DNA of 64,000 bases from positions 57,040,001 through 57,104,000 of the forward strand of contig OZ024741.1 of assembly GCA_964016885.1 (NCBI GenBank), in the 5' to 3' direction. Each line of letters begins with the position of its first letter. Position 1 is the stretch's first letter. The translations under genes and the position numbers were made by a program. This document shows positions 10,402-64,000 of this stretch, one piece after another. The notes beneath the pieces are model-generated. The model ran no database searches. It had not been told where the DNA came from and saw only the letters and a program-made list of their open reading frames with translations. The DNA comes from Eledone cirrhosa (Eukaryota).

Positions 10402-12228
10402 CAAATAGGAGTATAGGATGCATGCCACAAATAGGAGTATAGGATGCATGCCACAAATAGGAGTATAGGATGCATGCCACAAATAGGAGTATAGGATGCA
10501 TGCCACAAATAGGAGTATAGGATGCTTGCCACAAATAGGAGTATAGGATGCATGCCACAAATAGGAGTATAGGATGCATGCCACAAATAGGAGTATAGGA
10601 TGCTTGCCACAAATAGGAGTATAGGATGCATGCCACAAATAGGAGTATAGGATGCATGCCACAAATAGGAGTATAGGATGCATGCCACAAATAGGAGTAT
10701 AGGATGCTTGCCACAAATAGGAGTATAGGATGCATGCCACAAATAGGAGTATAGGATGCATGCCACAAATAGGAGTATAGGATGCTTGCCACAAATAGGA
10801 GTATAGGATACTTGCCACAAATAGGAGTATAGGATGCATGCCACAAATAGGAGTATAGGATGCTTGCCACAAATAGGAGTATAGGATGCATGCCACAAAT
10901 AGGAGTATAGGATGCTTGCCACAAATAGGAGTATATGATGCATGCCACAAATAGGAGTATAGGATGCATGCCACAAATAGGAGTATAGGATGCTTGCCAC
11001 AAATAGGAGTATAGGATACTTGCCACAAATAGGAGTATAGGATGCATGCCACAAATAGGAGTATAGGATGCTTGCCACAAATAGGAGTATAGGATGCATG
11101 CCACAAATAGGAGTATAGGATGCATGCCACAAATAGGAGTATAGGATGCATGCCACAAATAGGAGTATAGGATACTTGCCACAAATAGGAGTATAGGATG
11201 CATGCCACAAATAGGAGTATAGGATGCATGCCACAAATAGGAGTATAGGATGCATGCCACAAATAGGAGTATAGGATGCTTGCCACAAATAGGAGTATAG
11301 GATGCATGCCACAAATAGGAGTATAGGATGCTTTCCACAAATAGGAGTATAGGATGCTTGCCACAAATAGGAGTATAGGATACTTGCCACAAATAGGAGT
11401 ATAGGATGCATGCCACAAATAGGAGTATAGGATGCTTGCCACAAATAGGAGTATAGGATGCATGCCACAAATAGGAGTATAGGATGCTTGCCACAAATAG
11501 GAGTATAGGATGCATGCCACAAATAGGAGTATAGGATGCATGCCACAAATAGGAGTATAGGATGCTTGCCACAAATAGGAGTATAGGATACTTGCCACAA
11601 ATAGGAGTATAGGATGCATGCCACAAATAGGAGTATAGGATGCTTGCCACAAATAGGAGTATAGGATGCATGCCACAAATAGGAGTATAGGATGCATGCC
11701 ACAAATAGGAGTATAGGATGCATGCCACAAATAGGAGTATAGGATACTTGCCACAAATAGGAGTATAGGATGCATGCCACAAATAGGAGTATAGGATGCA
11801 TGCCACAAATAGGAGTATAGGATGCATGCCACAAATAGGAGTATAGGATGCTTGCCACAAATAGGAGTATAGGATGCATGCCACAAATAGGAGTATAGGA
11901 TGCTTTCCACAAATAGGAGTATAGGATGCTTGCCACAAATAGGAGTATAGGATGCATGCCACAAATAGGAGTATAGGATACTTGCCACAAATAGGAGTAT
12001 AGGAGTATAGGATGCTTGCCACAAATAGGAGTATAGGATACTTGCCGCAACTAGGACTATAGGATACTTGCCACAGATAGGAGTATAGGATGCTTGCCAC
12101 AAATAGGAGTATAGGATGCTTTCCACAAATAGGAGTATAGGATACTTGCCGCAACTAGGACTATAGGATACTTGCCACAAATAGGAGTATAGGATACTTG
12201 CCGCAACTAGGACTATAGGATACTTGCC
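10402..12228. repeat. 26-bp minisatellite, ~70 units, GCCACAAATAGGAGTATAGGAT(GCAT/GCTT/ACTT)
   Basis: Directly visible; the 26-aa periodic ORFs in three minus frames are a by-product. Confidence 0.97.
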
Positions 12229-49394: not shown

Positions 49395-50021
49395 TAGAAA
49401 GTGAGGGTTTTTTTACAAAATGAAAAATAACCGAGGTGTCCTACACGAGTGAAAGTATAAAGAAAAAAAGATGAAATCGAAAATGCAACTGGAGTCTTAT
49501 TTTTAAAAAAATATATATATTTATTTGGTTCCTTTACCGGTTTCGCAGTTCTTCTGCTTTTCAAAAGTAGAGTTGAGATGGAGGGTCTGTGGTTCTTCTC
49601 ACATCTGGTTGGTCTCTGAATGTTACTTGTTTTATATGGAAAAAGTCGCTCGAAATGCCAGGTTTTTCGAGAAGTAATTTGATTGGTTGGTCAATAATTA
49701 TAATAAATTTCGCGCCAGTTCTCGTTACAAAGTTCTTCAAACAAGGGGGGGGTTGTCACAGGTTGTTTTTTTCATATATGAGTGTTTGAATTTCTTTTTA
49801 CTTAAAAAAGAGAAGGGGCTCACGAAAGCTTTTTTTTAATAAACGTAATTTGATTGGTTATAAATGAAATTATGGCTGTCACGTGAACAAGTTTTCATTA
49901 AATTTTCGCGCCCTTATTCTGTAGCCTTTTCAGAGAATTTTATGACATGCAAAAGATAATGGTCAAGAGAAATGGGATGGGAGAATTGTTCTGGTTCAGT
50001 GAATATGGTTAGTTCGCTGGG
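49395..50021 (-). repeat. Probable inverted pLTR at the 5' truncation of the 50022 PLE
   Basis: Abuts (TA)n and the ORF, and carries a minus-strand HHR. Confidence 0.5.
49532..49567 (-). ncRNA. Minimal hammerhead ribozyme, U3-A8 variant
   Basis: Minus strand: CTT-TTGAAAA-GCAG aagaa CTGC-GAAA-CCGG-TA-AAG; palindromic CCGG in place of stem III. Confidence 0.6.
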
Positions 50022-51950
50022 GTGTCAGAATGGGAGATTATCCATGAACTAAAAAACAATACGGACATTATAATTAAGGAAGCGGACAAGGGAACTACTG
50101 TTGTCATTATGGAGGCTGAAAAATATAAAAATTCTATGTTCTCTCTCTTACAAAATACTAATTACTATGAAAGAGTAAAAAACTACCAGCAATCAAAAAC
50201 AATGACCAGATTAAACACACTGATTTATCGATACCAGGAAGACCTAACTAAAAAGGAAAACGATTATTTAACACATTTTGAATACAAAACCAGCAACCTT
50301 TACGGACTTCCGAAGATCCACAAGTGTAAAATAATTAATGATGCCTGTAAACAATCCACCTCAGCCTGCGTGAACACACAATACCCCACAGACCTTAAAT
50401 TAAGATCAATTGTAGCGGGCCCACAATGTGAAACACACAGACTGAGCAACTTTATAGACATACTACTAAAACCAATTCTCAAACACATATCAAGCCTTGT
50501 AAGAGACGATCTGGACCTTTTAAACCACCTCCCCAAACATGTCAACAACGACACTATTATTGTGTTTTTTTATGTAGTGAATTTCTACACAACAATCCCA
50601 CACAAATACGGACTAGAAGCAATAGGATTCTGGCTAGAGAAATATCCCAATGAGATACCTGACAGAATAGAAAAAAGCTTCATCACCGAGGGATTAAAAT
50701 TCATCTTACAGAACAACTGTTTTGATTTCGATGGCAATACTTACAAGCAAATATCGGGGACTGCGATGGGTACAAAAGCCGCTCCAACTTATGCCAACTT
50801 AGTCATGGCATACTTAGAAGTCCAGATATATGAACAGTTCAAATCAAAATACGGATTGAACTTCCACAAATATTTATCAGAGAATTGGAAACGCTACTTG
50901 GATGATTGTCTCATTCTTTGGTCCCACACACTCGACCAACTGAAGGATTTCAAAAACTTAATAAACGGCATCAATAACCACATCCAATTCACAATGGAAT
51001 ACAGCCAAGATCAACTCCCATTTCTGGACATCTTAATCTTAAAAAAAGACACAAATATTGAAACTGACATACACTACAAACCAACAGATTCCAAACAATA
51101 CCTGCTATTCACCTCCAACCATCCAAAACACACGAAGACGAACATTCCTTTTAACCTAGCAAGAAGAATTTGCACAATTGTCTCCAATTATGAAACGCGA
51201 AATAAAAGACTTCAAGAATTAAAGGAAATTCTACTCGAAAGAGAGTACCCACTATTACTAATAAATAATGGAATAGAAAAGGCTAAAGCAATAGGCATTG
51301 ATGAATTACGAAAACAGAAACAAATTCAAGGTACGTTCAATATTCTATCATATATCTCAACACACAACCCAAGAAATGCGGAAGCTTACAACACTATTCA
51401 CAAGAACATCCCACTACTAAAACAAAACCCAAGAATGAAAAAAGCCCTTGAAACACACAAAATAATCAAAAGCAAAAGACAACCGAAATCACTGAAAACA
51501 TTACTCACCAATGCCAATTTACCTACCACAAACCCACAACCAAGTGTCAAAAAATGTGGTCGCTCTAATTGTGGAACCTGCACTCACCTCATTGAAGGCA
51601 ACACGTATACATTTAAATCAGGACAAAATTTTACTGTAAAAAATCACTTCACTTGCTCATCAAAAAATCTAATTTATGCCATTAAATGTAAAGGATGCAA
51701 TGAAGATTATATAGGACAAACTAAACTCACACTCAGAAACAGAATGACAGTTCATCGCTAACAATTACGAGATCCAACCACGAGACAGATACCACTAAGC
51801 GCACATCTAGACATATGCGCAAGTAATAAGACACCCAAATTCCAAGTCTTCCCATTTTACCTTTGCGCTAACAATACAACAGAACAAATACGAATAAATA
51901 AGGAAAATATGTTTATTCAAAAATATAGACCAGCATTAAATATGGTTTAA
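50022..51950 (+). pseudogene. PLE (Neptune-like) RT + GIY-YIG ORF, 5'-truncated, premature TAA at 51759
   Basis: ADKG, LYGLPKIHK, GTAMGTKAAPTYANL, WKRYLDDC, FLDI, YKPT, CGRSNCGTC, LIYAIKCKGC...YIGQT. The frame continues after the stop (QLRDPT...KENMFIQKYRPALNMV*). The RT motif-A Asp appears mutated (FFYVVNFYTTIPH). Confidence 0.9.
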
Positions 51951-52145
51951 TATACATTATGTCAACACCATAACATGCTAACCATCCAAACTGACACATA
52001 CACACACACATAACACCTACTTTAGAAAATGAAAACCCGAACTAAATAAACCTTAACATACGTATGCACTGACAATACAACAGAACAAATACGAATAAGG
52101 AAAATATGTTCATTAAAAAATATTCCTACTAAAGGAATCATTTTC

Positions 52146-52232
<87 letters not shown>

Positions 52233-52794
52233 TCTTCATCTTAACATGCTAACCATACTCCCACACACATAACACCCATACACACACATAACAACCCCCA
52301 CACCCACATACACAACTCCCCTCCCCCATTTCTACTAATAGAATCACTTTCCTACACACATATATACACACACACAAAATATATATTCTCTCCATCTTAA
52401 TATACTCCCACACACACACACACATAACACCCATATACACACACACACAACTCCCTCCCCCATTTCTACTAATAGAATGATCTTCCAATACACACACACA
52501 CACACACACACACAAGCACACAAATAAACATACATATCTTTACTTTCTTTTTTCCCACTCACCCACAATTACGGAAATAAATGACAAAACTAAATACATG
52601 ACGCTTTACCCCTCTAATACAATTAGGATACCTCTCTCTACTCCCCTTAAAATTCGATAAATCTACATACATGCTGCAACTTTCTCTTATATACGCTTAA
52701 ACCCACTCCTTACAAACTTCCTTTAGGAACTCGGAAGAAAGAAGGGAGAAAGAAATGAAGGATGAGAGAGAGAACGTTTGTTTTTGAGTATGGA

Positions 52795-53275
52795 ACGGTC
52801 AAACATTGCCGGCCGCATTCCACGCCATACTGCCCTCAACGAGGTCATTAAGCATGGCTTGGACGCTGCAGGCTTCCCTTCCCAGCTCGAGCCGGTGGGG
52901 CTGGATCGAGGGGACGGCAAAAGGCCAGATGGCATGACTATCTTCCCGTTCCGCGGTGGCAAACCCCTCGTCTGGGATGCCACTTGCACTGACACTTTCT
53001 GCAGCTGCAACCTGGTGCAGTCTGCGACTGACCCAGGTTCTACTGCACGTCGGGCTGAGGGGGCCAAACTCCTCAAATACCGGGCGCTCTCCGATAGCTT
53101 TGTGGTCGTTCCACTGGCAGTGGAAACTTCTGGTGTCCTCGGCCCCAGGGCTACCTCCTTACTCACCACCATAGGCGCTGAGCTGGCTAGCCGCAGGTGT
53201 GAGCCCCGCGAGTTGGAGTGGATTTTCCAGCGCGTCTCCCTTGCCATCCTCCGGGGGAAACGCCTTCTCCATTCT
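52795..53275 (+). mobile_element. CRE-clade non-LTR 3' fragment (restriction-like endonuclease domain)
   Basis: RHTALN, LEPVGL.RGDGKRPDGMT..P...GKPLVWDATC.DT, K..KY, PLAVETSG..G, QRVSLAILRG. Confidence 0.85.
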
Positions 53276-53419
53276 GTCCGCCAGGGCTGTGGGTGGGCCC
53301 CATCGCGTACCAATACATTAGTTGAATACCAACGTAGTTTTGTCTTTGCGTGTAATTGTTTTTGGCGTTATATCTATGTATCTATCTAAAAAGAAAGACT
53401 AAGGGAGAGAGAGAGAGAT

Positions 53420-53583
53420 CGCTTTTTCGCCTAGGGGGTTAAAAATTTGAAATCTTTGCTCAAAACACTCAGAGGACCATAAGTATTACATGTGTAAAGT
53501 TTGAAAACAATCGGTCGGGTGGTTCTCGAGTTTTAGGGAGTCAGACAGACAGACAGACATTCTCTGTTTTAAATATATAGATT
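53420..53583 (-). mobile_element. Helitron-like 5' fragment
   Basis: Reverse-complement similarity to 23436-23570. Confidence 0.55.
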
Positions 53584-53597
53584 AGTATATATATATG

Positions 53598-53686
<89 letters not shown>

Positions 53687-53770
53687 TAATATATAAATAT
53701 ATATAAATGAAGTATTTCCGTCGGAAAGGTACAGGAAAAAAGAGTGCTCTATGTAGGCTACAGAGCTTAT

Positions 53771-54022
53771 TAGTTATGTAATAAACAACATAAGATAATT
53801 ATTTCATTTACCAGTGGTTTCTTGAAGGCAGATGTTATGTCTGTCTTCAGTCGTCAGAATGAAAAATAACATGGTGTTTTTATTAAATATGGATTAAATC
53901 CATATTTAATAAAAACACTATGTTAATTATTCATTCTGACGACTGAAGACAGACATAACATCTGCCTTCAAGAAACCACTGGTAAATGAAATAATTATCT
54001 TATGTTGTTTATTACATAACTA
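53771..54022. repeat. Fold-back of an HHR-containing unit (centre ~53896)
   Basis: TAGTTATGTAATAAAC...GTTTATTACATAACTA; near-perfect arms of ~125 bp. Confidence 0.9.
53930..53990 (+). ncRNA. Type I hammerhead ribozyme (mirror copy 53803-53863 minus), GUA cleavage after 53984
   Basis: TTCATT-CTGACGA-CTGAAGACAGA cataaca TCTGCCTTCAA-GAAA-CCA c TGG-TA-AATGAA. Confidence 0.72.
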
Positions 54023-54153
54023 TATATATATATATATGTTTCTTCCTTACGTAACCGTAGGGACACGGGTATACAATACCTAACTCCTATTAACCTAAGT
54101 ATATATATATATATATGACACGGGTATACAATACCTAACTCCTATTAACCTAA

Positions 54154-54211
<58 letters not shown>

Positions 54212-54610
54212 TTAGGTTAATAGGAGTTAGGTATTGTATACCCGTGTCCTTACGGTTACGTAAGGAAGAAACATTGTAAGCCAATAAAAAAATTGTTGAT
54301 GTTGTAGACGCTCTTCTGTTCTTTATCATATATATATATATGTGTGTGAATGAAGTAATTCCATCGGAAAAGTCCAGGAAAAAAGAGTGCTCTATGTAGG
54401 CAGCTCCAACCGGGATTGATCAATGCATATTCTATATTACATATACGATTGGCACTTTCCAGCCCGATTAGTTGAGCACTCTACAGTTTTCAGGAATTTA
54501 ACCAACATACACCATGGACCTTTATGATTTGGATTATTCTATCAAAAATATACCCACTCATTTTTGTTTTTGTTTTTATAATCCAAATTCAATAAACAAA
54601 CCATGATTTT

Positions 54611-54668
54611 TTCATTCTGAGGATTGAAAGCAAAACCTTTTGCTTTTAAGAAACCACTGGTAAATGGA
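54611..54668 (+). ncRNA. Type I hammerhead ribozyme, relative of 53930 with a different stem II
   Basis: TTCATT-CTGAGGA-TTGAAAGCAAAA cc TTTTGCTTTTAA-GAAA-CCA c TGG-TA-AATGGA. Confidence 0.72.
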
Positions 54669-54701
54669 ATAATTGCCTTATGTTGTTTATTACCTAATAA
54701 T

Positions 54702-54729
<28 letters not shown>

Positions 54730-54732
<3 letters not shown>

Positions 54733-55448
54733 GGAACCAGTAAGACCCCGACAGCTGAGCTCAAGCCGTTTCGACGGCTAATTCTGGACTAAATGAGAAT
54801 TTATCCTGGTATTTAAATAGCCGATCTTCTCAAGGGGTAATTCCATATATGGTCAAAGTGATTGTCAAAAATCAGTAGTAATTCTGTGGTTGCAAATTAG
54901 TAGGGGAGATGGTGGCTAAACCTGCCAGTAGGAGAAAGAGGGGAGGGGGTGGAGTAGCCCCAATCAAGCGTTTGTAGTGCCAGCTACAGCTGGGCATGAG
55001 GTCAAAGAAGATACAGGGAAGGGGGAGGGGGAGGAAGTCGGAACGGTAGGTAGAACAATGGAGGGTAGAAATATATAGGAAAGAAAAAATACTGAGAGTG
55101 AAGTAAAGCAAATAGGTGTAAAGAAAAACAAATGAGTGTAAAGAAAAAATTTAAGTTAATTAAATTCTACGACCTAGGTCTCTAGCTATTGTTAGTCTAG
55201 AATAAATAAATAAAGAAAGAAAGAAGTAAAGAAAGAAATAAAGAAATAACGAAATAAGTAAAAGAACTAGGTGGGACGGATAAGGCGAGGACCCTTTTAA
55301 GAGGTATAAGTACGTAAATGATACGGTGACGGGTCAACAAAAGGGGCCAAAATACTAAAGAGACTACCACGAAATAAACAATAAAGGTTTCCATCCCGGG
55401 CACAATTCCAGCAACCACCCAGTGCAGCAAAGTGAACTAATACGAGAT
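54730..55448 (-). repeat. Inverted partial pLTR (5' inversion)
   Basis: Reverse complement of 56083-56800; the ORF track gives matching peptides on opposite strands (55197-55430 minus vs 56101-56334 plus). Confidence 0.92.
54745..54838 (-). ncRNA. Hammerhead ribozyme copy in inverted pLTR
   Basis: Reverse complement of 56692-56785. Confidence 0.72.
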
Positions 55449-56880
55449 GACGGACCAACTCCTAAACAAGAAAGATGAACTGGTTACTGCATGTAAACAT
55501 AGATTGCGTAGGACTTACCTCGCCCTCAAACCCCATAATGACCGGGGGGGGGGGTAGACTAGGGCTATAACACCCCACTTGCCGATTTTGCAATGGGTAA
55601 CCCCTGCTTGCCAAGGGAGACGTAAGATCTTCTTTGTATTCTTTTATCGCTTCCTTTATTTCCTTCCTTCCCCCCTCTCTCTTTAGTCCTTCCACCCCAG
55701 CCCTTCTCCTTTGTCGGCGTCTTTTCTCGCCCACCCGAGGCTGCCCTTTGGCCCCTTGTAGCCTTAGTACCCCCACCCCCTCCCCTAGTCTAGGATAGAT
55801 TTGGTGGACTCCGCCCTTTATAGCAGTTGGTTTAGACCCCGGATATTTGTCCCCTTTTTCCGACCGCTCCCACTATTCTCTGTGCCCTCTATATTTCTTA
55901 GTGGCACTTATGCCTTATTTTCTCGTTTCAGTATTTCTTTCTTCGCTTTTCTTTTGGGCGGGGTGCATTCTGAATTTATTCTTCCGTATTCTACCTTTAC
56001 TTCGTACGAACTTTCATGTAGCTTGTTTTAGATCCTTTAGAGTTAGCATTAGTATATATTTTTCTCGGGACTCAGAATTATTATCTCGTATTAGTTCACT
56101 TTGCTGCACTGGGTGGTTGCTGGAATTGTGCCCGGGATGGAAACCTTTATTGTTTATTTCGTGGTAGTCTCTTTAGTATTTTGGCCCCTTTTGTTGACCC
56201 GTCACCGTATCATTTACGTACTTATACCTCTTAAAAGGGTCCTCGCCTTATCCGTCCCACCTAGTTCTTTTACTTATTTCGTTATTTCTTTATTTCTTTC
56301 TTTACTTCTTTCTTTCTTTATTTATTTATTCTAGACTAACAATAGCTAGAGACCTAGGTCGTAGAATTTAATTAACTTAAATTTTTTCTTTACACTCATT
56401 TGTTTTTCTTTACACTTATTTGCTTTTCTTCACTCTCAGTATTTTTTCTTTCCTATATATTTCTACCCTCCATTGTTCTACCTACCGTTCCGACTTCCTC
56501 CCCCTCCCCCTTCCCTGTATCTTCTTTGACCTCATGCCCAGCTGTAGCTGGCACTACAAACGCTTGATTGGGGCTACTCCACCCCGCCCCTCTTTCTCCT
56601 ACTGGCAGGTTTAGCCACCATCTCCCCTACTAATTTGCAACCACAGAATTACTACTGATTTTTGACAATCACTTTGACCATATATGGAATTACCCCTTGA
56701 GAAGATCGGCTATTTAAATACCAGGATAAATTCTCATTTAGTCCAGAATTAGCCGTCGAAACGGCTTGAGCTCAGCTGTCGGGGTCTTACTGGTTCCTAT
56801 TACCCACTCTACTACCTCAAGTATTGAGTACTTTGGTGCGTTATGGTCCACCTGGTTCCTTACCACATTTCCTTCGTTAT
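55449..56880 (+). repeat. 5' pseudo-LTR (direct repeat of 59019-60452)
   Basis: Starts GACGGACCAACTCC, ends CCTTCGTTAT; only a few substitutions/indels versus the 3' copy. Confidence 0.93.
56692..56785 (+). ncRNA. Type I hammerhead ribozyme, U3-A8 core variant, predicted cleavage after GUC at 56780
   Basis: ACCCC-TTGAGAA-[GATCGGCTA...TAGCCGTC]-GAAA-[CGGCT tgagctc AGCTG]-TC-GGGGT; stems I, II and III all pair. Confidence 0.75.
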
Positions 56881-59133
56881 CTAGCTCCTACCCCCGTAGT
56901 AGAGCACTTTCCGACCCTACCACGCCGTATCCAGACTTTTCCGCTAAGCCCAATTCATTTCACCCGCACCATGCGAAAACACAACATTGACTTCTCTACC
57001 AAGAACATCCCAATCCCACCGAAAAAACTTTACCTTCGGATGCTCACGCAAAAAATCGATCTATTTGCGAAAAGACTTAGATGGAGAACTTTTTTCTATG
57101 ACAGATATTGCGACAACCAAGACTTCGGCACCAAGGAGAGATTCGGATTTATTACCTACAAATCTCCGCCCCTGAACCCCTTGCTCGCACCCTTCGAGAA
57201 TGACCTCTTCCAACTGGTCAAGAACATTAAATTTAAACCCAGACACAACCGATTCCTACAAAAACTCCGTAGCAACCTAACAGAGTATGATAACACAAAT
57301 GACATCATGGTGCATTCGGATAAAACTGGGAACCTATACTTTGTCAACCCTGACAGATACCACACACTGATCAGGAGCAGCCTAAACTCCACCTATAAAA
57401 AGGCCAACCACTCTTGCATCGAGGACATAAATCGAGATGGACAACAAATCACCTCCAGCCTCGGGGTCGCCGACCGCACGGAACCTCTAGACCCACGGAC
57501 ACCATACTTCACACTGAAGGACCATAAATCCGATTTTGACCGTAAACCCTCTATCAGGCTTATTAACCCAACGAAGTCCGACATAGGGAGAATCAGCAAA
57601 AAAATCCTAGACCGCGTGATACCAAAAGTCAAGCAACACACCCGACTTAGCCTATGGATCAACACCCAGGAAGTAATCTCCTGGTTCAGCAATATGGAGG
57701 ATAAACGAGAAACTAAATTCATACAGTTCGACATAGAGAGCTACTATGCTTCAATCACCTTACCGCTACTTACTGCCGCCTTGGACTTCGCCGAATCACT
57801 TGTGCCCATCACCGACCAGGAAAGAAAAATCATCCTCCACGCCAGGAAGACAGTCTTACTCTTTGACGACTCTAAATGGATAAAAAGAGCTCCCGACTCA
57901 CCCTTCGACGTCAGCATGGGCGCCACGGATTCGGCGGAGGTCACAGATTTTATAGGATTATTCCTAATAGCCAAACTCACTGATATGTTTCCTGCATTCG
58001 GTGGTGGATTGTACCGTGATGATGGGCTCCTTACCCTTAAAGGGTACAACCCCAGTAGTACAGATCGGGTCCGGAAACAATTAATCAGATTCTTCCGAGA
58101 CTGGGGATTTAAAATAACCCTACAAACGTCCCTGACCAGAGTAAACTTCCTGGACGTGACCCTCGACCTCGAAAACGACCTGTACTACCCATACAGGAAA
58201 CCTAATGACAATCTGCACTACATCCACCGCCGATCAAACAATCCTAGGAACATCACAAACAACCTGGTCAAAAACATCTCCCTCCGCATATCCCGTTTAT
58301 CAGCTAATGAGCGGATATTCGATGAACATGCGCCTTATTACAACCAGGCCCTCAAGCGGAGTGGTTTCCGGGAGGAAATATCCTACTGTCCAGCTCCCAT
58401 TAGCGGAACCAGCAGGAGACACCGCCGCTCACGCAATGTAACATGGTTCAATCCTCCCCACAACGCAGAGGTGACAATTCCCATCGGGAAACTATTCTTT
58501 AGGCTCATTGAAAAACACTTCCCATTACAACACCGCTACCACAACATAATTAACAAAAATACCATCAAACTCTCTTACAGCACTACACCAAACTTCGCAC
58601 AAAACATCGTCTCCTCTAACAACAAAAAACTCAACCCCGATGGCAGAAATAACCTAAATAGCAGTGGAGAACCGACCAGGAGGTGTAACTGCCCGGATAG
58701 ATCTATTTGCCCACTCGACAATAGATGCAGAGACCGTAATGTGATCTACCAGTGCAACGTGAGGACGGATACCTCCAACAAAGCCTATATAGGACTTACC
58801 GCATGTGACTTCAAGACCCGGCTATACCAACATAGACATACCTTCCGAAACCCGGCCCGGCGTCACGCCACTACACTTTCGGGCCACATATGGGACCTCA
58901 AGGACAACAACATCACCTATGATCTCACTTGGAGATTACTGTCCAGAGCCAATTCTTACACGGGAGGACGCCGTCCGTGCAATTTATGCTCGGAGGAAAC
59001 TTTACAAATGCTCTTTTCGACGGACCAACTCCTAAACAAGAAAGATGAACTGGTTACTGCATGTAAACATAGATTGCGTAGGACTTACCTCGCCCTCAAA
59101 CCCCATAATGACCCGGGGGGGGGGGTAGACTAG
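56824..59133 (+). CDS. PLE reverse transcriptase + GIY-YIG endonuclease, uninterrupted (first ATG at 56971, MRKHNIDFSTKNIPIP; true start uncertain)
   Basis: Motifs DKTGN, TLKDHK, RLINP, QFDIESYYASI, MGATDSAEV, LYRDDGL, FLDVTL, YRKPN; Cys linker CNCPDRSICPLDNRC; GIY-YIG VIYQC...YIGLT...FKTR..QH; CNLC..E; LLNKKDELVTACKH. Confidence 0.92.
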   Translation: MSTLVRYGPPGSLPHFLRYLAPTPVVEHFPTLPRRIQTFPLSPIHFTRTMRKHNIDFSTKNIPIPPKKLYLRMLTQKIDLFAKRLRWRTFFYDRYCDNQDFGTKERFGFITYKSPPLNPLLAPFENDLFQLVKNIKFKPRHNRFLQKLRSNLTEYDNTNDIMVHSDKTGNLYFVNPDRYHTLIRSSLNSTYKKANHSCIEDINRDGQQITSSLGVADRTEPLDPRTPYFTLKDHKSDFDRKPSIRLINPTKSDIGRISKKILDRVIPKVKQHTRLSLWINTQEVISWFSNMEDKRETKFIQFDIESYYASITLPLLTAALDFAESLVPITDQERKIILHARKTVLLFDDSKWIKRAPDSPFDVSMGATDSAEVTDFIGLFLIAKLTDMFPAFGGGLYRDDGLLTLKGYNPSSTDRVRKQLIRFFRDWGFKITLQTSLTRVNFLDVTLDLENDLYYPYRKPNDNLHYIHRRSNNPRNITNNLVKNISLRISRLSANERIFDEHAPYYNQALKRSGFREEISYCPAPISGTSRRHRRSRNVTWFNPPHNAEVTIPIGKLFFRLIEKHFPLQHRYHNIINKNTIKLSYSTTPNFAQNIVSSNNKKLNPDGRNNLNSSGEPTRRCNCPDRSICPLDNRCRDRNVIYQCNVRTDTSNKAYIGLTACDFKTRLYQHRHTFRNPARRHATTLSGHIWDLKDNNITYDLTWRLLSRANSYTGGRRPCNLCSEETLQMLFSTDQLLNKKDELVTACKHRLRRTYLALKPHNDPGGGVD

Positions 59134-60448
59134 GGCTATAACACCCCACTTGCCGATTTTGCAATGGGTAACCCCTGCTTGCCAAGGGAGACGTAAGATC
59201 TTCTTTGTATTCTTTTATCGCTTCCTTTATTTCCTTCCTTCCCCCCTCTCTCCTTAGTCCTTCCACCCCAGCTCTTCTCCTTTGTCGGCGTCTTTTCTCG
59301 CCCACCCGAGGCTGCCCTTTGGCCCCTTGTAGCCTTAGTACCCCCACCCCCTCCCCTAGTCTAGGATAGATTTGGTGGACTCCGCCCTTTATAGCAGTTG
59401 GTTTAGACCCCGGATATTTGTCCCCTTTTTCCGACCGCTCCCACTATTCTCTGTGCCCTCTATATTTCTTAGTGGCACTTATGCCTTATTTTCTCGTTTC
59501 AGTATTTCTTTCTTCGCTTTTCTTTTGGGCGGGGTGCATTCTGAATTTATTCTTCCGTATTCTACCTTTACTTCGTACGAACTTTCATGTAGCTTGTTTT
59601 AGATCCTTTAGAGTTAGCATTAGTATATATTTTTCTCGGGACTCAGAATTATTATCTCGTATTAGTTCACTTTGCTGCACTGGGTGGTTGCTGGAATTGT
59701 GCCCGGGATGGAAACCTTTATTGTTTATTTCGTGGTAGTCTCTTTAGTATTTTGGCCCCTTTTGTTGACCCGTCACCGTATCATTTACGTACTTATACCT
59801 CTTAAAAGGGTCCTCGCCTTATCCGTCCCACCTAGTTCTTTTACTTATTTCGTTATTTCTTTATTTCTTTCTTTACTTCTTTCTTTCTTTATTTATTTAT
59901 TCTAGACTAACAATAGCTAGAGACCTAGGTCGTAGAATTTAATTAACTTAAATTTTTTCTTTACACTCATTTGTTTTTCTTTACACTTATTTGCTTTTCT
60001 TCACTCTCAGTATTTTTTCTTTCCTATATATTTCTACCCTCCATTGTTCTACCTACCGTTCCGACTTCCTCCCCCTCCCCCTTCCCTGTATCTTCTTTGA
60101 CCTCATGCCCAGCTGTAGCTGGCACTACAAACGCTTGATTGGGGCTACTCCACCCCCTCCCCTCTTTCTCCTACTGGCAGGTTTAGCCACCATCTCCCCT
60201 ACTAATTTGCAACCACAGAATTACTACTGATTTTTGACAATCACTTTGACCATATATGGAATTACCCCTTGAGAAGATCGGCTATTTAAATACCAGGATA
60301 AATTCTCATTTAGTCCAGAATTAGCCGTCGAAACGGCTTGAGCTCAGCTGTCGGGGTCTTACTGGTTCCTATTACCCACTCTACTACCTCAAGTATTGAG
60401 TACTTTGGTGCGTTATGGTCCACCTGGTTCCTTACCACATTTCCTTCG

Positions 60449-60452
<4 letters not shown>
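59019..60452 (+). repeat. 3' pseudo-LTR, includes the ORF end, runs into (TA)n
   Basis: Direct repeat of 55449-56880. Confidence 0.93.
60264..60357 (+). ncRNA. Hammerhead ribozyme copy in 3' pLTR (cleavage after 60352)
   Basis: Identical to 56692-56785. Confidence 0.75.
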
Positions 60453-60496
<44 letters not shown>

Positions 60497-60675
60497 TGAA
60501 ACGAAGCCGTCGAATAGGACGGATATATCTTCGGTCGTTTTTCCCACTCATTCAATAATTTAATTAAATCAGTATCATTAAGACCAACACAAGAAATTTA
60601 AAGTGGATGTATATATATATTATAAGAAATTTAGTGGATGTATTTGTATATATAAGGGACGCGTAAAGTTCTGAT

Positions 60676-61050
60676 GTTAAAGTGGGGTTCATTGTATTGA
60701 AAGGTCAGTTTAGGTGTGGATATAGAATTAATCGTTTGTCTTGTGGGGCATGTGTGTGTGTGTTTATCCCTTGTATCAAGATTAAATTGTTTTTTAGGGG
60801 TTGTAGAAAAAGGTAAGAATAAAGATAAATAGAATTATAGATATAAATATGATTGAAAAGTGTCCTGAGGGGGGGGGGTGCAGAGACATTCATGTTTATA
60901 TCTATATTTTTATTTATCTTTATCCTTACTTTTTTCTACAACCCCTAAAAAACAATTTTGTTTTCTTGATACACACACACACACATACCACAAGATTAAT
61001 TCTATACCCACACCTAAACTGACCCTCAACACAATGAACTTCATTTTAAC
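60676..61050. mobile_element. Imperfect long inverted repeat (fold-back/MITE-like)
   Basis: CAGTTTAGGTGTGG...TAGGGGTTGTAGAAAA is mirrored by TTTTCTACAACCCCTA...CCACACCTAAACTG; centre ~60870. Confidence 0.75.
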
Positions 61051-61434
61051 CCCCACCCACATACATTAAAAAGCCAGCTGACCATTAGTTTGAATTGTAA
61101 GAACATTTTCTATTTCTATTTTAACCAAATGAATTCAATTGAATTCCTGACCTGTTGAACCCTTACTTCCACCATCACCACCACACCACCACCTTCATCA
61201 CCCCACATCATTCTTCACCACCACACTTCCATAAAGAAAATATATAAGAAGACATTTTCACAGAAAAGTCACATATATTCGAACTGCTCACAAAACATTA
61301 AAAAAAACATTTAAAAAAAATATTTTATACTTAATATCTAATATTTAATAAGACTGTTATACCAATCAAAACTGTCGGATTAAAGAAAAAATAATCTTTA
61401 AATATACTTCTGTACATTTTCACCTTCCAGTGAC

Positions 61435-61605
61435 GCCACCTACTGCAACACATTCTCCGCCTCGAGAAGAACGTAAAATAAACAAATACCGGGGTTTGTT
61501 CGACCGCTTCCTCTTCGCGCCCGTTACCGTCGAGAGCTCAGGCGTACTTGGACCCCGATCAACCGAGCTCCTCCGCAAGACCAGAAAGTTGGTGGCCCGA
61601 CTGAG
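61435..61605 (+). mobile_element. CRE RLE fragment
   Basis: EERKINKYRGL..RFLFAPVTVESSGVLGP. Confidence 0.75.
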
Positions 61606-61649
61606 GAGAAACATTATTATTATTATTGTATATTCGGCGGTATAGGGGT

Positions 61650-61835
61650 GGTGGTTTGGCAGTATCGGTAGAGGGTCAGACAACATGCTTTGTAGCACAG
61701 AGTTACGCCCCTTTCTGATCTGAGTTCAAATCCTGCCGAGGTTAACTTTGCCATTCATCCTTACGGGGTCGATAAAATAAAGTAGCAGTCATGCACTGGG
61801 TAATCGCTGGCCTTGTGCGTAAAGTAGAGATAATT
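61650..61835 (+). mobile_element. SINE family 1
   Basis: TGGCAGTATCGGTAGA...GAGTTCAAATCC...GGGGTCGATAAAATAAAG. Confidence 0.85.
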
Positions 61836-61904
61836 ATTTTTCTATTTATAATATGAATGTCCACAGGTACCTAACATAACTTTAATCATTTATCAATATT
61901 TTAG

Positions 61905-62400
61905 ACAAATCACAGAGGCAATAAACATAAAAGAATTACAACCAAAATTAAATAGAAAATATGAGTGGAACAGCAACATCACAACTTACAATTAAGGACA
62001 AAATGAAAACACACACACACATAGAACAAACAACCAACCGGTAACATGTAAATAAACAAATAAATAAACGAATATAAACACACACAGACACCCGGATGTG
62101 GCGCATGCGCAGACTGAGCACACAACACACACACAGAAACAAAATGGCGTAGGACAGAACAAAGGAGAGGCACAAAAACAAAGAAAAGAATCCCCAGTCA
62201 CTGAAGAGGTCACATAATGTGTGACGAAAGAACTTTGAGAATATATAAACAACTATCTGGTTGTGGAACCAACCAACCAACCAGAAATTTATAAATTTAT
62301 AAATTCCTAAATTTATAAATTTATTATAATAAATTGAAGTGAAAGCAACTGGTGCGTGTGTTTCTTATTGGCAACATGACCCTCCCAAAGTATAACAATA
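61905..62400 (+). mobile_element. Short 3' copy of the 38507-40780 PLE (ORF end + pLTR, HHR-like motif at 62197-62239)
   Basis: Highly similar to 40323-40780, with the same 3' terminus CCTCCCAAAGTATAACAA(TA)n. Confidence 0.88.
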
Positions 62401-62484
62401 TATATATATATATATGTTTCGAGGGGTAACCACAGTTAAATAAACTTACTCAAAACATTGATAGAGTATAGGCATCTTCATCGG

Positions 62485-62670
62485 TGGGTTGGCAGTATCG
62501 GTAGAGGATCGGACGCTATGCTTTGCAGCATAGAGTTACGGCCCTTTACGGTCTGCGTTCAAATCCCGCCGAGGTTAACTTTGCCTTTCATGCCTATAGG
62601 TTCGATAAAATAAAGCACCAGTAATGCACTGGAATAATTGATGGCCTTGTGCCAAAAGTAGAAACAATTA
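62485..62670 (+). mobile_element. SINE family 1
   Basis: Same consensus as 61650-61835. Confidence 0.85.
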
Positions 62671-63103
62671 TATATAGAATGACAGAACAAGAACTGTTTC
62701 ATTAATCAGTGGGATTGTTAGTTCTGATTAGTTATAAATGTCTCAGTTAGTAGTTGAGGGTGATGGTAAGGGGATCCTATCTAATGAAGCAAGTATCTAG
62801 TGGTGGATGATGAGGAGGAAAGGGGGAGAAGTCACCTGATTAATGAGGGGAGGGAGCGGAGGAAAGAGAGTGAAAAAGGGGATGAGGAAGAAGAAATAAA
62901 ATCAGGTGAAGTAGAGTGCTAGTGGTATGTGGGAGGGAAGGGGGTAGCCAAGTTTCTTTGAGTAGACAGAAAGAAGGATTCAAAAGAGAAAAGAGAATCT
63001 ATTTTATACATGCATGACTAGTTTTGGTCAAGTAAACAAGTGGGTAGGAAAACAAAAGTTCTTAGTGCTGAATTGTATGTGTTAACCACACACACACACA
63101 CAC

Positions 63104-63154
<51 letters not shown>

Positions 63155-63183
63155 TATATAATATTTTTTTTTTTAAATGTTTA

Positions 63184-63248
<65 letters not shown>

Positions 63249-63252
63249 TATA

Positions 63253-63330
63253 TATGGTGTCCCCCAAAACTGTATACATATATTTATTAGAATGCTGTTG
63301 AAGAGTGTATACATTTTTGGGGTCACCATG
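63253..63330. mobile_element. Tc1/mariner-type MITE
   Basis: Similar to 16309-16407, including internal TTTATTAGAATGCTGTTGAAG. Confidence 0.72.
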
Positions 63331-63499
63331 TATAGAAAGAGGGAGAGAAAGAGAGAGTGAGGGAAAGAGTGAGAGAGATGGGGGGATTGAAATTGAATTG
63401 GGATTAGATTTTGCCGTATTTTAAATAAAGAAAATAGTCTATGCCTGCAGAAATCCTTTCTATGGTAATAATTCCATAGCTGGAGGCAAACACCAACTG

Positions 63500-63870
63500 T
63501 TTAACGAAAACTGGAATATCCTTTTAAGATTTACAATGTTTGTCACAAGTATGAAAATACACTGTTGACAGGTGCAATGTGTCCGAACACGGAAGAGCCG
63601 AACTCCTACCATCATTGTCCCCCATCTCTCTCGCCCTCCCCATCTCTCTGTATTGTGAGCAAATGGGGTCCCACATGCTGGCAGACAGAATGGAGAAGGC
63701 GTTTCCTCGGAGGAGGGTAAAGGAGATACGCTGGAAGAGCCATTCCTTCTGGTATCCTCCAGTTTATGGAGGAGCTGATAACTTTGTTAGAACTCAATGC
63801 AGCCTTGAAGAGATGGTTCCAATGAGATCAGGCGGTGAATGCTATAGCTCTGTAGTAGGCTCTCATCGAA
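63500..63870 (-). mobile_element. Possible decayed LINE RT fragment
   Basis: Weak PD.I / N.RIP / GxR-like motifs on minus. Confidence 0.3.
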
Positions 63871-63879
63871 GATTCTACT

Positions 63880-63984
<105 letters not shown>

Positions 63985-64000
63985 GTGTGTGTGAGAGAGA

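Follow-up and report, generated by a model that had tools for sequence, protein, structure and literature searches.

The window, a 64,000-nucleotide stretch of the Eledone cirrhosa genome, contains what is, by its motifs and architecture, an intact Hydra-clade Penelope-like element (PLE) with a hammerhead in each pLTR. From the ends of the ~16,500 arms of its family in the genome, we consider it about an even chance that this element combines twin-primed reverse transcription, cleavage of a minority of its RNAs by U3-A8 hammerheads, and over-unit copies drawn from a re-ligated circle. The new part is the record left by the genomic arm ends, whereas the U3-A8 hammerhead is a known, rare form of self-cleaving RNA. 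Natural U3-A8 cores are described by Perreault 2011 (PMC3088659), and in Cercyon PLEs of Schistosoma mansoni by Cervera and de la Pena 2014 (PMC4209133), which already holds both U3-A8 in PLEs and the RNA circle put forward in the first-pass annotation.

The element (Table 1) encodes a single ORF in which the RT comes first and GIY-YIG is C-terminal, an order supported by alignment with 15 homologs. Its motifs are RWR at 37 (homologs show RWK or RWR), DKT at 117, in place of DKG, and YRDDG at 348, followed in the C-terminal half by CxCX5C at 572 (CNCPDRSIC), YIG at 606 (YIGLT), CxxC at 670 (CNLC) and CxH at 698 (CKH). A Pfam search of the ORF protein gave no match at E<=1; its top homolog has a GIY-YIG match in Pfam. 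Shared with the Hydra-clade C-terminal EN+ PLEs (Craig et al. 2021, PMC8557442) are RW(K/R), DKT, the CxCX5C linker and C-terminal GIY-YIG, the CxxC and CxH around a conserved E and N, as well as (TA)n targets, a pLTR hammerhead and an inverted 5'-truncated copy; the N-terminus is visibly homologous to Hydra-1_Obim. Insertion into (TA)n is seen at the flanks of the element in the window and in nearly all terminal arms examined. In contrast to that clade, the unit measures 3.57 kb rather than generally <3 kb. Its hammerhead combines a UUGA core with a 37-nt insert and a stem III of 6 bp, where every Hydra-clade hammerhead row of File S2 (PMC8557442) shows CUGA, a loop 2 that is short and only 3-4 bp in stem III. 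The original label 'Penelope/Naiad-like' thus holds for an intact PLE and fails for Naiad: Naiad PLEs resemble it in length, in their (TA)n targets and tails, and in forming partial tandems and inverted copies, but their endonuclease is N-terminal, their motif is DKA and they lack a canonical hammerhead, as opposed to the C-terminal endonuclease, DKT and full hammerhead found here. The frame is free of stops from 56770 to 59133 with its first in-frame ATG at 56971, as annotated. A meaning of its opening near the cut is not supported: 14 of 15 homologs begin no more than a few residues away from the Met at 56971, and the frame upstream of it carries stops in 6/7 sister-subfamily copies, so that a translation start at the cut was rejected.

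Table 1. Features of the element in the window (positions of the 64,000-nt stretch).
Feature	Position	Strand	Remarks
Whole two-armed PLE insertion	54730..60452		in (TA)n target
Inverted short arm	54730..55448	-	matches 59654-60372; 3' end ~20 nt past cut
Third hammerhead copy, inverted	54745..54838	-	predicted C17 at 54750; missed by first-pass annotation
Upstream partial unit = 5' pLTR	55449..56780	+	matches 59019-60352
5' type I hammerhead	56686..56797	+	core UUGAGAA 56697-56703; predicted C17 at 56780
Putative transcription start	56734..56743	+	64/100 arms end at -33..-44; contigs from public runs have joints at 56736-56750
Post-cut segment	56781..56880	+	holds both putative RT starts (+18-20; +98-100)
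Out-of-frame uORF, 13 codons	56843..56884	+	ATG at 56843; missed by first-pass annotation
RT + C-terminal GIY-YIG ORF, 720 aa	56971..59133	+	intact; Hydra clade
3' UTR	59134..60263	+	rich in pyrimidines
3' hammerhead	60258..60369	+	predicted C17 at 60352
3' tail	60353..60452	+	ends ~100 nt past cut; (TA)n next

Each pLTR carries a complete type I hammerhead with the UUGAGAA core, and the anatomy first described for it is borne out from the sequence: the predicted cuts after 56780 and 60352 lie 3,572 nt apart, the long stem II loop (claimed as ~38 nt) is a 37-nt insert, and the palindrome UGAGCUCA occupies loop III (56767-56774). In the 5' copy, stem I pairs ACCCC (56692-56696) with GGGGU (56781-56785) and can be extended by a 6-bp helix (56686-56691/56792-56797); the core U3 U4 G5 A6 G7 A8 A9 (56697-56703), stem II (56704-56712/56750-56757), G12 A13 A14 (56758-56760) and a stem III of 6 bp with a 7-nt loop (56761-56766/56774-56779) complete the fold. 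All the marks of type I are present, i.e. three helices, an open stem I, U4 G5 A6, A9, G12 A13 A14, A15.1-U16.1 and H17, and the Watson-Crick 3-8 pair occurs as U3-A8 in the window copy and its own subfamily. With 6 bp in stem III, a need for the dimer raised earlier is not supported, even though two such RNAs are predicted to form a stable intermolecular duplex (-26.3 vs 2 x -4.9 kcal/mol).

It is conservation that argues against a chance resemblance to a hammerhead: U4 G5 A6, A8, A9 and GAAA are invariant across 32 copies from four subfamilies and stem I is 100% paired, with N7 and the stem II bulge free to vary. Covariation in the 32-copy alignment was not significant (score reached by 42/500 shuffles), the 105-nt fold was no more stable than shuffles (z -0.83), and an Rfam scan of 50000-64000 gave no hammerhead match at E<=5, just TA-repeat noise. 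When stem I is extended, the commonest family allele has the hammerhead as its lowest-energy fold (-27.5 kcal/mol, ~39% of the ensemble). The window copy has a rare C at 56733 (1/153 sampled copies), common to all three window hammerheads, with which a core-sequestering fold is predicted to be favoured by 1 kcal/mol (~25%). The Watson-Crick 3-8 pair is not kept in all copies: 16/32 aligned copies have an unpaired C3·A8, all but one of them in sister subfamilies. Nor is U3-A8 a clean compensatory swap, because these sister subfamilies (1,494 matches) combine C3 with A8, the latter found in 100/100 of their matches listed. The U3 copies cluster among C3 copies in a subfamily tree that leaves the direction of change unset (58/170 rows, with 14/126 main-family rows taken at random; midpoint root, bootstrap not settled), and both U3-A8 subfamilies trace to one origin. 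A literature search for kinetic data on C3·A8 hammerheads found none.

The 3' ends of the arms bear on how copying begins. In 96/105 two-armed insertions, one end at ~+20 past the cut is paired with one at ~+100, whereas two long ends occur in 0/105 and two short ones in 2/105; none of the arms in two sampled sets (0/29 and 0/100) has its 3' end at the cut. These positions do not support a linear 56781-60352 RNA as a 3'-primed template. The RT likely primes both (TA)n target strands from within the RNA, at one site ~20 nt and another ~100 nt beyond the cut, and the 'tail' would be the 80 nt separating the inferred start sites at +18-20 and +98-100. Given the pairing, twin priming from a single RNA or RNP is highly probable, in agreement with the in vitro start sites and two-strand cutting of Poseidon PAc of Anolis (Frangieh et al. 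2024, PMC11167929). The available portion of that report likewise has two internal RT start sites downstream of the hammerhead delimiting a tail, cutting and extension of both target strands, and AT-rich targets; its tail measures 30-40 nt, as against ~80 nt within the 5' UTR here, and that portion describes neither a one-short-one-long pairing nor 5'-end peaks.

The 5' ends of 64/100 sampled arms fall at -33..-44 from the cut and none at -45..-73. It is at about -40, and not at the cut, that RNA 5' ends appear to be most frequent. The stretch 56734-56743 holds what we take to be two overlapping initiator-like motifs, with A at 56736 (-44) and 56740 (-40). Most RNAs would accordingly start at about -44/-40, within stem II, where the RT would run off; an RNA begun there would carry just half a ribozyme at its 5' end. 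We regard it as fairly probable that such starts and run-off generated the thousands of ~200-bp hairpin insertions of the family. Re-priming by the RT after -33..-44 stops is seen at five loci (L202, L217, L230, L233 and L249), and after run-off it targets sites +161 to +317. In Drosophila Penelope, too, the promoter is internal to the pLTR (PMC2377424). A comparison by eye with downstream promoter consensuses gave no clear or convincing match. A search for RNA data sets with the element listed none; it listed four public runs of unrecorded kind, all from one study. In two of these runs joints at -30..-44 recur and depth is ~50-fold higher over the short-arm region, so that the short insertions are not assembly artefacts, though the runs may stem from the same sample. 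Splicing or trans-splicing at TTTAG/CCAG near -40 was considered and set aside, the joins examined showing no leader or upstream exon.

Longer arms behave differently from those that stop on their first pass. On contig C1 (50 positions, excluding L223, L241 and L243), 15/15 young full or near-full arms run >=83 nt past the cut, through both stops (p<1e-12 if they stopped as first-pass arms do), which fits a circular or uncleaved template. Just this set is unbiased, the 37 full-unit arms having come mostly from a query requiring upstream sequence; the sole full-unit arm ending at +1 is L250, whose partner arm extends 6 nt past the cut. The unit junction is exact in 29/29 crossing arms. Differences between the partial and the downstream unit are not inherited between insertions (2/111 sites recur, both in low-complexity DNA), and 11 private alleles, including C56733, are common to both. 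We propose that RNAs cut at both hammerheads would be ligated and that the RT would cross the junction; meeting no end, it could exceed one unit and regenerate the pLTR. Circularisation of a cleaved unit RNA is plausible, and that a re-ligated circle is the template for over-unit copies we hold to be evenly balanced. Tandem arrays were rejected as proof of rolling-circle copying, since they are not clean products: in arrays C, E and F, neighbouring units are near-identical beside one that is more diverged, and the alternating variants of array A stop short of the partial unit. A dimer circle as the source of the alternating variants suits array B, but neither the partial unit of array A nor array F, which is without alternation.

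Over-unit arms might alternatively come from uncleaved read-through transcripts begun far upstream, with cleavage trimming or destroying RNA and no circle forming, as in the PAc model, for which the available text reports that hammerhead mutants insert normally in vitro and that no RNA-seq reads ended at the hammerhead cut (PMC11167929). The exact junctions suit uncleaved RNA equally, the C3·A8 subfamilies also produced many long arms (among their 1,494 matches), and the arrays show duplication at the DNA level. However, if nothing regenerated it, the upstream partial unit should become shorter with each generation, whereas its mean is 1.1 kb (in a biased sample), resembling ordinary long arms by a rough estimate from spacings, and the lack of inheritance of the partial-versus-unit differences also speaks against read-through. 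Long arms per -40-type insertion number 0.65 in the main U3-A8 family vs 0.37 in C3·A8, a weak hint as the search patterns were unmatched. On this evidence we judge read-through to be somewhat unlikely. A jump or strand transfer of the RT from the RNA 5' end (-40 or +1) to the 3' end of a linear RNA, be it the same molecule or a different one, is distinctly improbable: the observed re-priming, an additional G at the cut in 2/30 loci, the chimeric L070, whose partial and unit differ at 11/619 columns and hence had two templates, and the alternating variants of arrays A and B, which could mean the same, all accord with it, but full-length arms back at -40 should then mostly stop, which 0/15 do, and run-off joins have untemplated bases while the crossing junctions are exact.

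Cleavage at the predicted bond is backed by genomic arms ending there. There are 122 insertions in which the two arms each stop at the cut, as against ~13 expected for ~8,000 insertions with an independent stop in ~4% of arms (simple arithmetic), an excess that counts towards twin priming. Among 50 such joins listed and categorised by hand, untemplated bases lie between two arms ending exactly at +1 in 22, 21 are blunt or show a CG overlap, and 7 have a 1-6 nt templated extension; at L251, each of three segments starts at +1. Joins deeper inside the tail occur in just 39 insertions, 23 of which keep one arm within 1 nt of +1 (hand count). The 2-nt overlap does not cause the +1 peak, since by hand count 0/50 joins listed use the 6-nt palindrome CAGCTG adjoining the cut and 12/50 the 8-nt loop palindrome. 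Relative to -40-type joins, cut-site joins number 122/3,328 (3.7%) and 70/1,157 (6.1%) in the U3-A8 subfamilies and 55/4,027 (1.4%) in the C3·A8 sisters (Fisher tests, p 5e-10 and 1e-15), which, given the shared origin of the former two, amounts to one evolutionary contrast that other lineage differences could underlie. The ratio for the second U3-A8 subfamily had been predicted ahead of its measurement. The C3·A8 subfamilies spread widely despite their unpaired core, with some +1 stops there too. Cut-site stops make up only 5/100 sampled arms, out of 3 insertions. Hammerhead cleavage in vivo of a minority of RNAs is thus likely from these genomic ends, and cleaved RNAs with their 5' end at +1 quite probably produce the cut-site arms. 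That the hammerhead is inactive in vivo, the +1 and -40 ends being RT pauses or microhomology joins in a folded RNP, is very improbable, for although the 21/50 joins listed can be read as CG overlap and the window copy is predicted to be partly misfolded, untemplated bases separate arms ending at +1, the longer adjoining palindrome gives no joins among those listed, +1 stops are rarer where the 3-8 pair is broken even with a nearly identical 3' half, and second-pass full-length arms never pause at -40.

Joined together, these observations admit a more tentative reading, to which we give less than even credence: the family would keep a genome-wide fossil record of the complete PLE cycle, in which the promoter within the hammerhead would yield half-ribozyme mRNAs and abortive hairpin insertions, twin RTs primed internally would find a productive template solely in cut and re-ligated 3.57-kb coding circles, and a change from C3·A8 to U3-A8 would have measurably raised cleavage in vivo. 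Two further known systems offer parallels. First, the Cercyon hammerheads, in the available part of PMC4209133, share the U3-A8 core missed by standard descriptors, a long stem II, an extra base after the A9 region and a palindromic loop III, and cleavage with circularisation was likewise proposed for them; those motifs are minimal and dimer-dependent, whereas the window hammerhead has a full stem III, and that part gives no in vivo evidence, as opposed to the genomic ends that mark the cut and the C3·A8 sister contrast found here. Second, in non-LTR retrozymes (PMC7229834; bioRxiv 10.64898/2026.07.22.740005) a type I hammerhead also bounds the unit repeat, and circular RNA with rolling-circle insertion has been proposed; retrozymes are small and non-coding and their circles have been shown, in contrast to the autonomous 3,572-nt unit with its 720-aa ORF, for which a circle is proposed.

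Finally, the role of the hammerhead in PLEs has been stated to be unclear (PMC8557442), and one in vitro study, in its available portion, found PLE hammerheads dispensable (PMC11167929). This young, high-copy family provides countable genomic read-outs of the steps of PLE copying, at exact positions (56736/56740, 56781, +20 and +100), which bear on the regeneration of pLTRs and on the inverted arms and tails of PLEs, along with natural U3-A8 and C3·A8 versions of one ribozyme. If a coding RNA circle is indeed the template for transposition, PLEs would be linked directly with retrozymes and with viroid-like replicons.

The hammerhead fold in each pLTR of the Penelope-like element (PLE), the predicted cuts after 56780 and 60352, their 3,572-nt spacing and the reading frame proved on checking the sequence to be as the first-pass annotation had given them, while its interpretation, the release by self-cleavage of a unit-length RNA carrying the ORF, is partly supported. 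The insertion is two-armed, head-to-head, has three hammerheads and lies wholly within (TA)n (see table). An Rfam scan did not detect its hammerhead motif, and the stability of the short fold is nothing unusual. For the common family allele, folding with a longer stem I gives the hammerhead as the best prediction; the rare C56733 of the window copy is predicted to favor a misfold slightly. An alignment of 32 copies representing four subfamilies shows invariant catalytic residues and a fully paired stem I; N7 and a bulge vary, and no covariation reached significance.

Of 8,000 candidates scored against the 720-aa ORF, 1,998 are homologs, and the best 120 are mostly ~40% identical over near-full length. 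The motifs of the element match those given for the Hydra clade in PMC8557442; it is not a Naiad, as 'Naiad-like' had implied. The homologs start in line with the Met at 56971, which makes the frame that is open upstream of it, from 56770 (earlier noted as stop-free from the cut itself), 5' UTR. An ORF of 717-723 codons is intact in 21/37 young full units. The family is young, nearest neighbors among 40 units mostly showing 0-23 differences per ~2,580 columns.

Features of the insertion and its flanks (window positions), and loci with mini-multimers
Feature	Position	Remark
Inverted arm	54730-55448	head-to-head with direct arm
Direct arm, partial unit	55449-56780	upstream of full unit
Direct arm, full unit	56781-60352	followed by 100-nt tail
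Imperfect inverted repeat	60754-60988	102 nt
Direct repeat	61650-61799 / 62483-62632	150 nt, 85%
Stretch like the element's 3' UTR	61792-61818	27 nt, 81%
Mini-multimer loci	L202, L216, L217, L229, L230, L232, L233, L238, L245, L249, L251	

In the 3.0-Gb assembly to which the window belongs, occurrences number 16,463 for the 16-mer following the cut, 2,171 for the hammerhead's 5' half and 310 for sequence continuing beyond +100 (+1 being 56781, the first base past the predicted cut). We sampled 100 arms within the initial 29 Mb of one contig, C1. Their 3' ends fall at +20 in 46 and at +97-100 in 45, with an uncertainty of 2 nt because both sites terminate in TAT. Among 105 paired insertions, 96 combine one short and one long end, two have two short ends, none has two long ones, and seven have a damaged end. 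As the arms end at +20 or +97-100, the primed end is not that of a linear RNA terminating at the cut. Separately, a 5' end at +18-20, the short priming site, is seen in fragments at L093:6670-6750 and at 12143-12169 of array D, one of the multi-unit tandem copies (arrays A-F).

The 5' ends of the same sample lie at -33..-44 in 64/100 arms, with peaks at -40 and -39, and in none at -45..-73; of the rest, 10 go further, 21 lie at -29..-2 and 5 at +1/+2. The upper edge and main peak coincide with the A of two initiator-like motifs, at 56736 and 56740, and the RT re-primes on arriving at the -33..-44 stop, as a template end would predict. We infer a promoter inside stem II, which would yield RNAs with only half a ribozyme at the 5' end. 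In mini-multimers, the RT apparently re-primes at ~+161, +191-214, +246 or +315 after run-off. Hairpin insertions of ~200 bp, with two arms ending at ~-40, number in the thousands across the assembly (e.g. L153, L160, L164; exact-pattern matches 3,328 + 4,027 + 1,157), and these MITE-like hairpins appear to be abortive PLE products.

A base other than C precedes +1 at 610 places in the assembly, the first 30 of which comprise 22 true stops, six point changes at C17 and two cases with an extra G. Both arms stop 0-6 nt from the cut in 122 insertions, with untemplated bases between exact +1 ends in 22 of the 50 listed. As controls, there are 39 joins deeper in the tail, 23 of them with one arm still at +1, and 183 joins with 7-36-nt gaps, where the adjacent 6-nt palindrome was used in none of the 50 listed. 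Sister subfamilies (loci L256-L285) have C3 with A8, an unpaired core, and G8 in none of 100 listed matches. Their cut-site joins amount to 55 per 4,027 promoter-type joins (1.4%), as against 122 per 3,328 (3.7%) and 70 per 1,157 (6.1%) in the first and second U3-A8 subfamilies, which form a single contrast because the U3 subfamilies share one origin. Cut-site stops are thus a minority class, though one that withstands the controls above. Cleavage in vivo, tracking the 3-8 pair, is likely.

For the long arms, all C1 positions continuing beyond +100 were examined (n=50; 47 resolved). They include 15 young arms of full or near-full length, all of which continue for 83 nt or more beyond the cut in the upstream direction, none stopping at -33..-44, and unit-crossing junctions are exact in 29/29. 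Within insertions, partial and full units differ at 114 of 39,235 columns, with 2/111 difference sites recurring between insertions, and have 11 private alleles in common in 17,281 columns. Because full arms cross the cut, junctions are exact, differences rarely recur and private alleles are shared, the pLTR is evidently regenerated from the unit, and the template of productive copies would have no end at -40 or +1. The simplest explanation for the long arms is a ligated circle; uncleaved read-through RNA may alternatively have been the template. Arrays of 2.4-4.5 units were not counted as support, later DNA duplication being evident in them.

Several copies are odd in themselves. In array A (L062-L063; 19170-22741 of a 27-kb stretch of C1), a 55-nt ORF piece is repeated ~64 times head-to-tail exactly at the arm junction, which may stem from reiterative copying by the RT or from a minisatellite that grew later. 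In the 4.5-unit arrays A (L061-L062) and B (L064-L066), variants alternate with a two-unit period (three substitutions and a G-run in A, one substitution in B). One arm at L087:3126-8051 has a 62-nt internal duplication in both partial and full unit, and at L070:2034-7006 there are differences in 11/619 columns between the upstream partial unit and the unit, which has a 430-nt deletion. At L068, L085, L087, L089, L098, L225 and L246, insertions of new and of old subfamilies are found clustered within or next to shared (TA)n tracts. Just upstream of the element, a hairpin around (TA)n at 54036-54274 is probably another short insertion; its arms measure 81 nt, and it includes a direct duplication of 55 nt.

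Neither the ribozyme variant nor the circle hypothesis is new. In the consulted parts of the respective papers, Cercyon PLEs have U3-A8 hammerheads (~1,300 matches), with cleavage, circularization and more-than-unit reverse transcription proposed and in vivo evidence stated to be absent (PMC4209133); natural U3-A8 cores are active (PMC3088659); the Penelope promoter lies within the pLTR (PMC2377424); and RT initiates internally at two sites with both strands cut, protein assists cleavage, core mutants are without effect on insertion, and RNA ends at the cut are absent (PMC11167929). In the consulted parts of these papers and of a literature including bioRxiv 10.64898/2026.07.22.740005, PMC6765202, PMC7151607 and PMC7229834, we found neither a use of genomic arm ends as cleavage evidence nor a statement of the one-short-one-long rule. 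What the analysis adds is genomic evidence that twin priming takes place at internal sites, that a promoter likely sits within the ribozyme, that cleavage likely occurs in vivo and follows the 3-8 pair, and that productive copies come from an apparently endless template.
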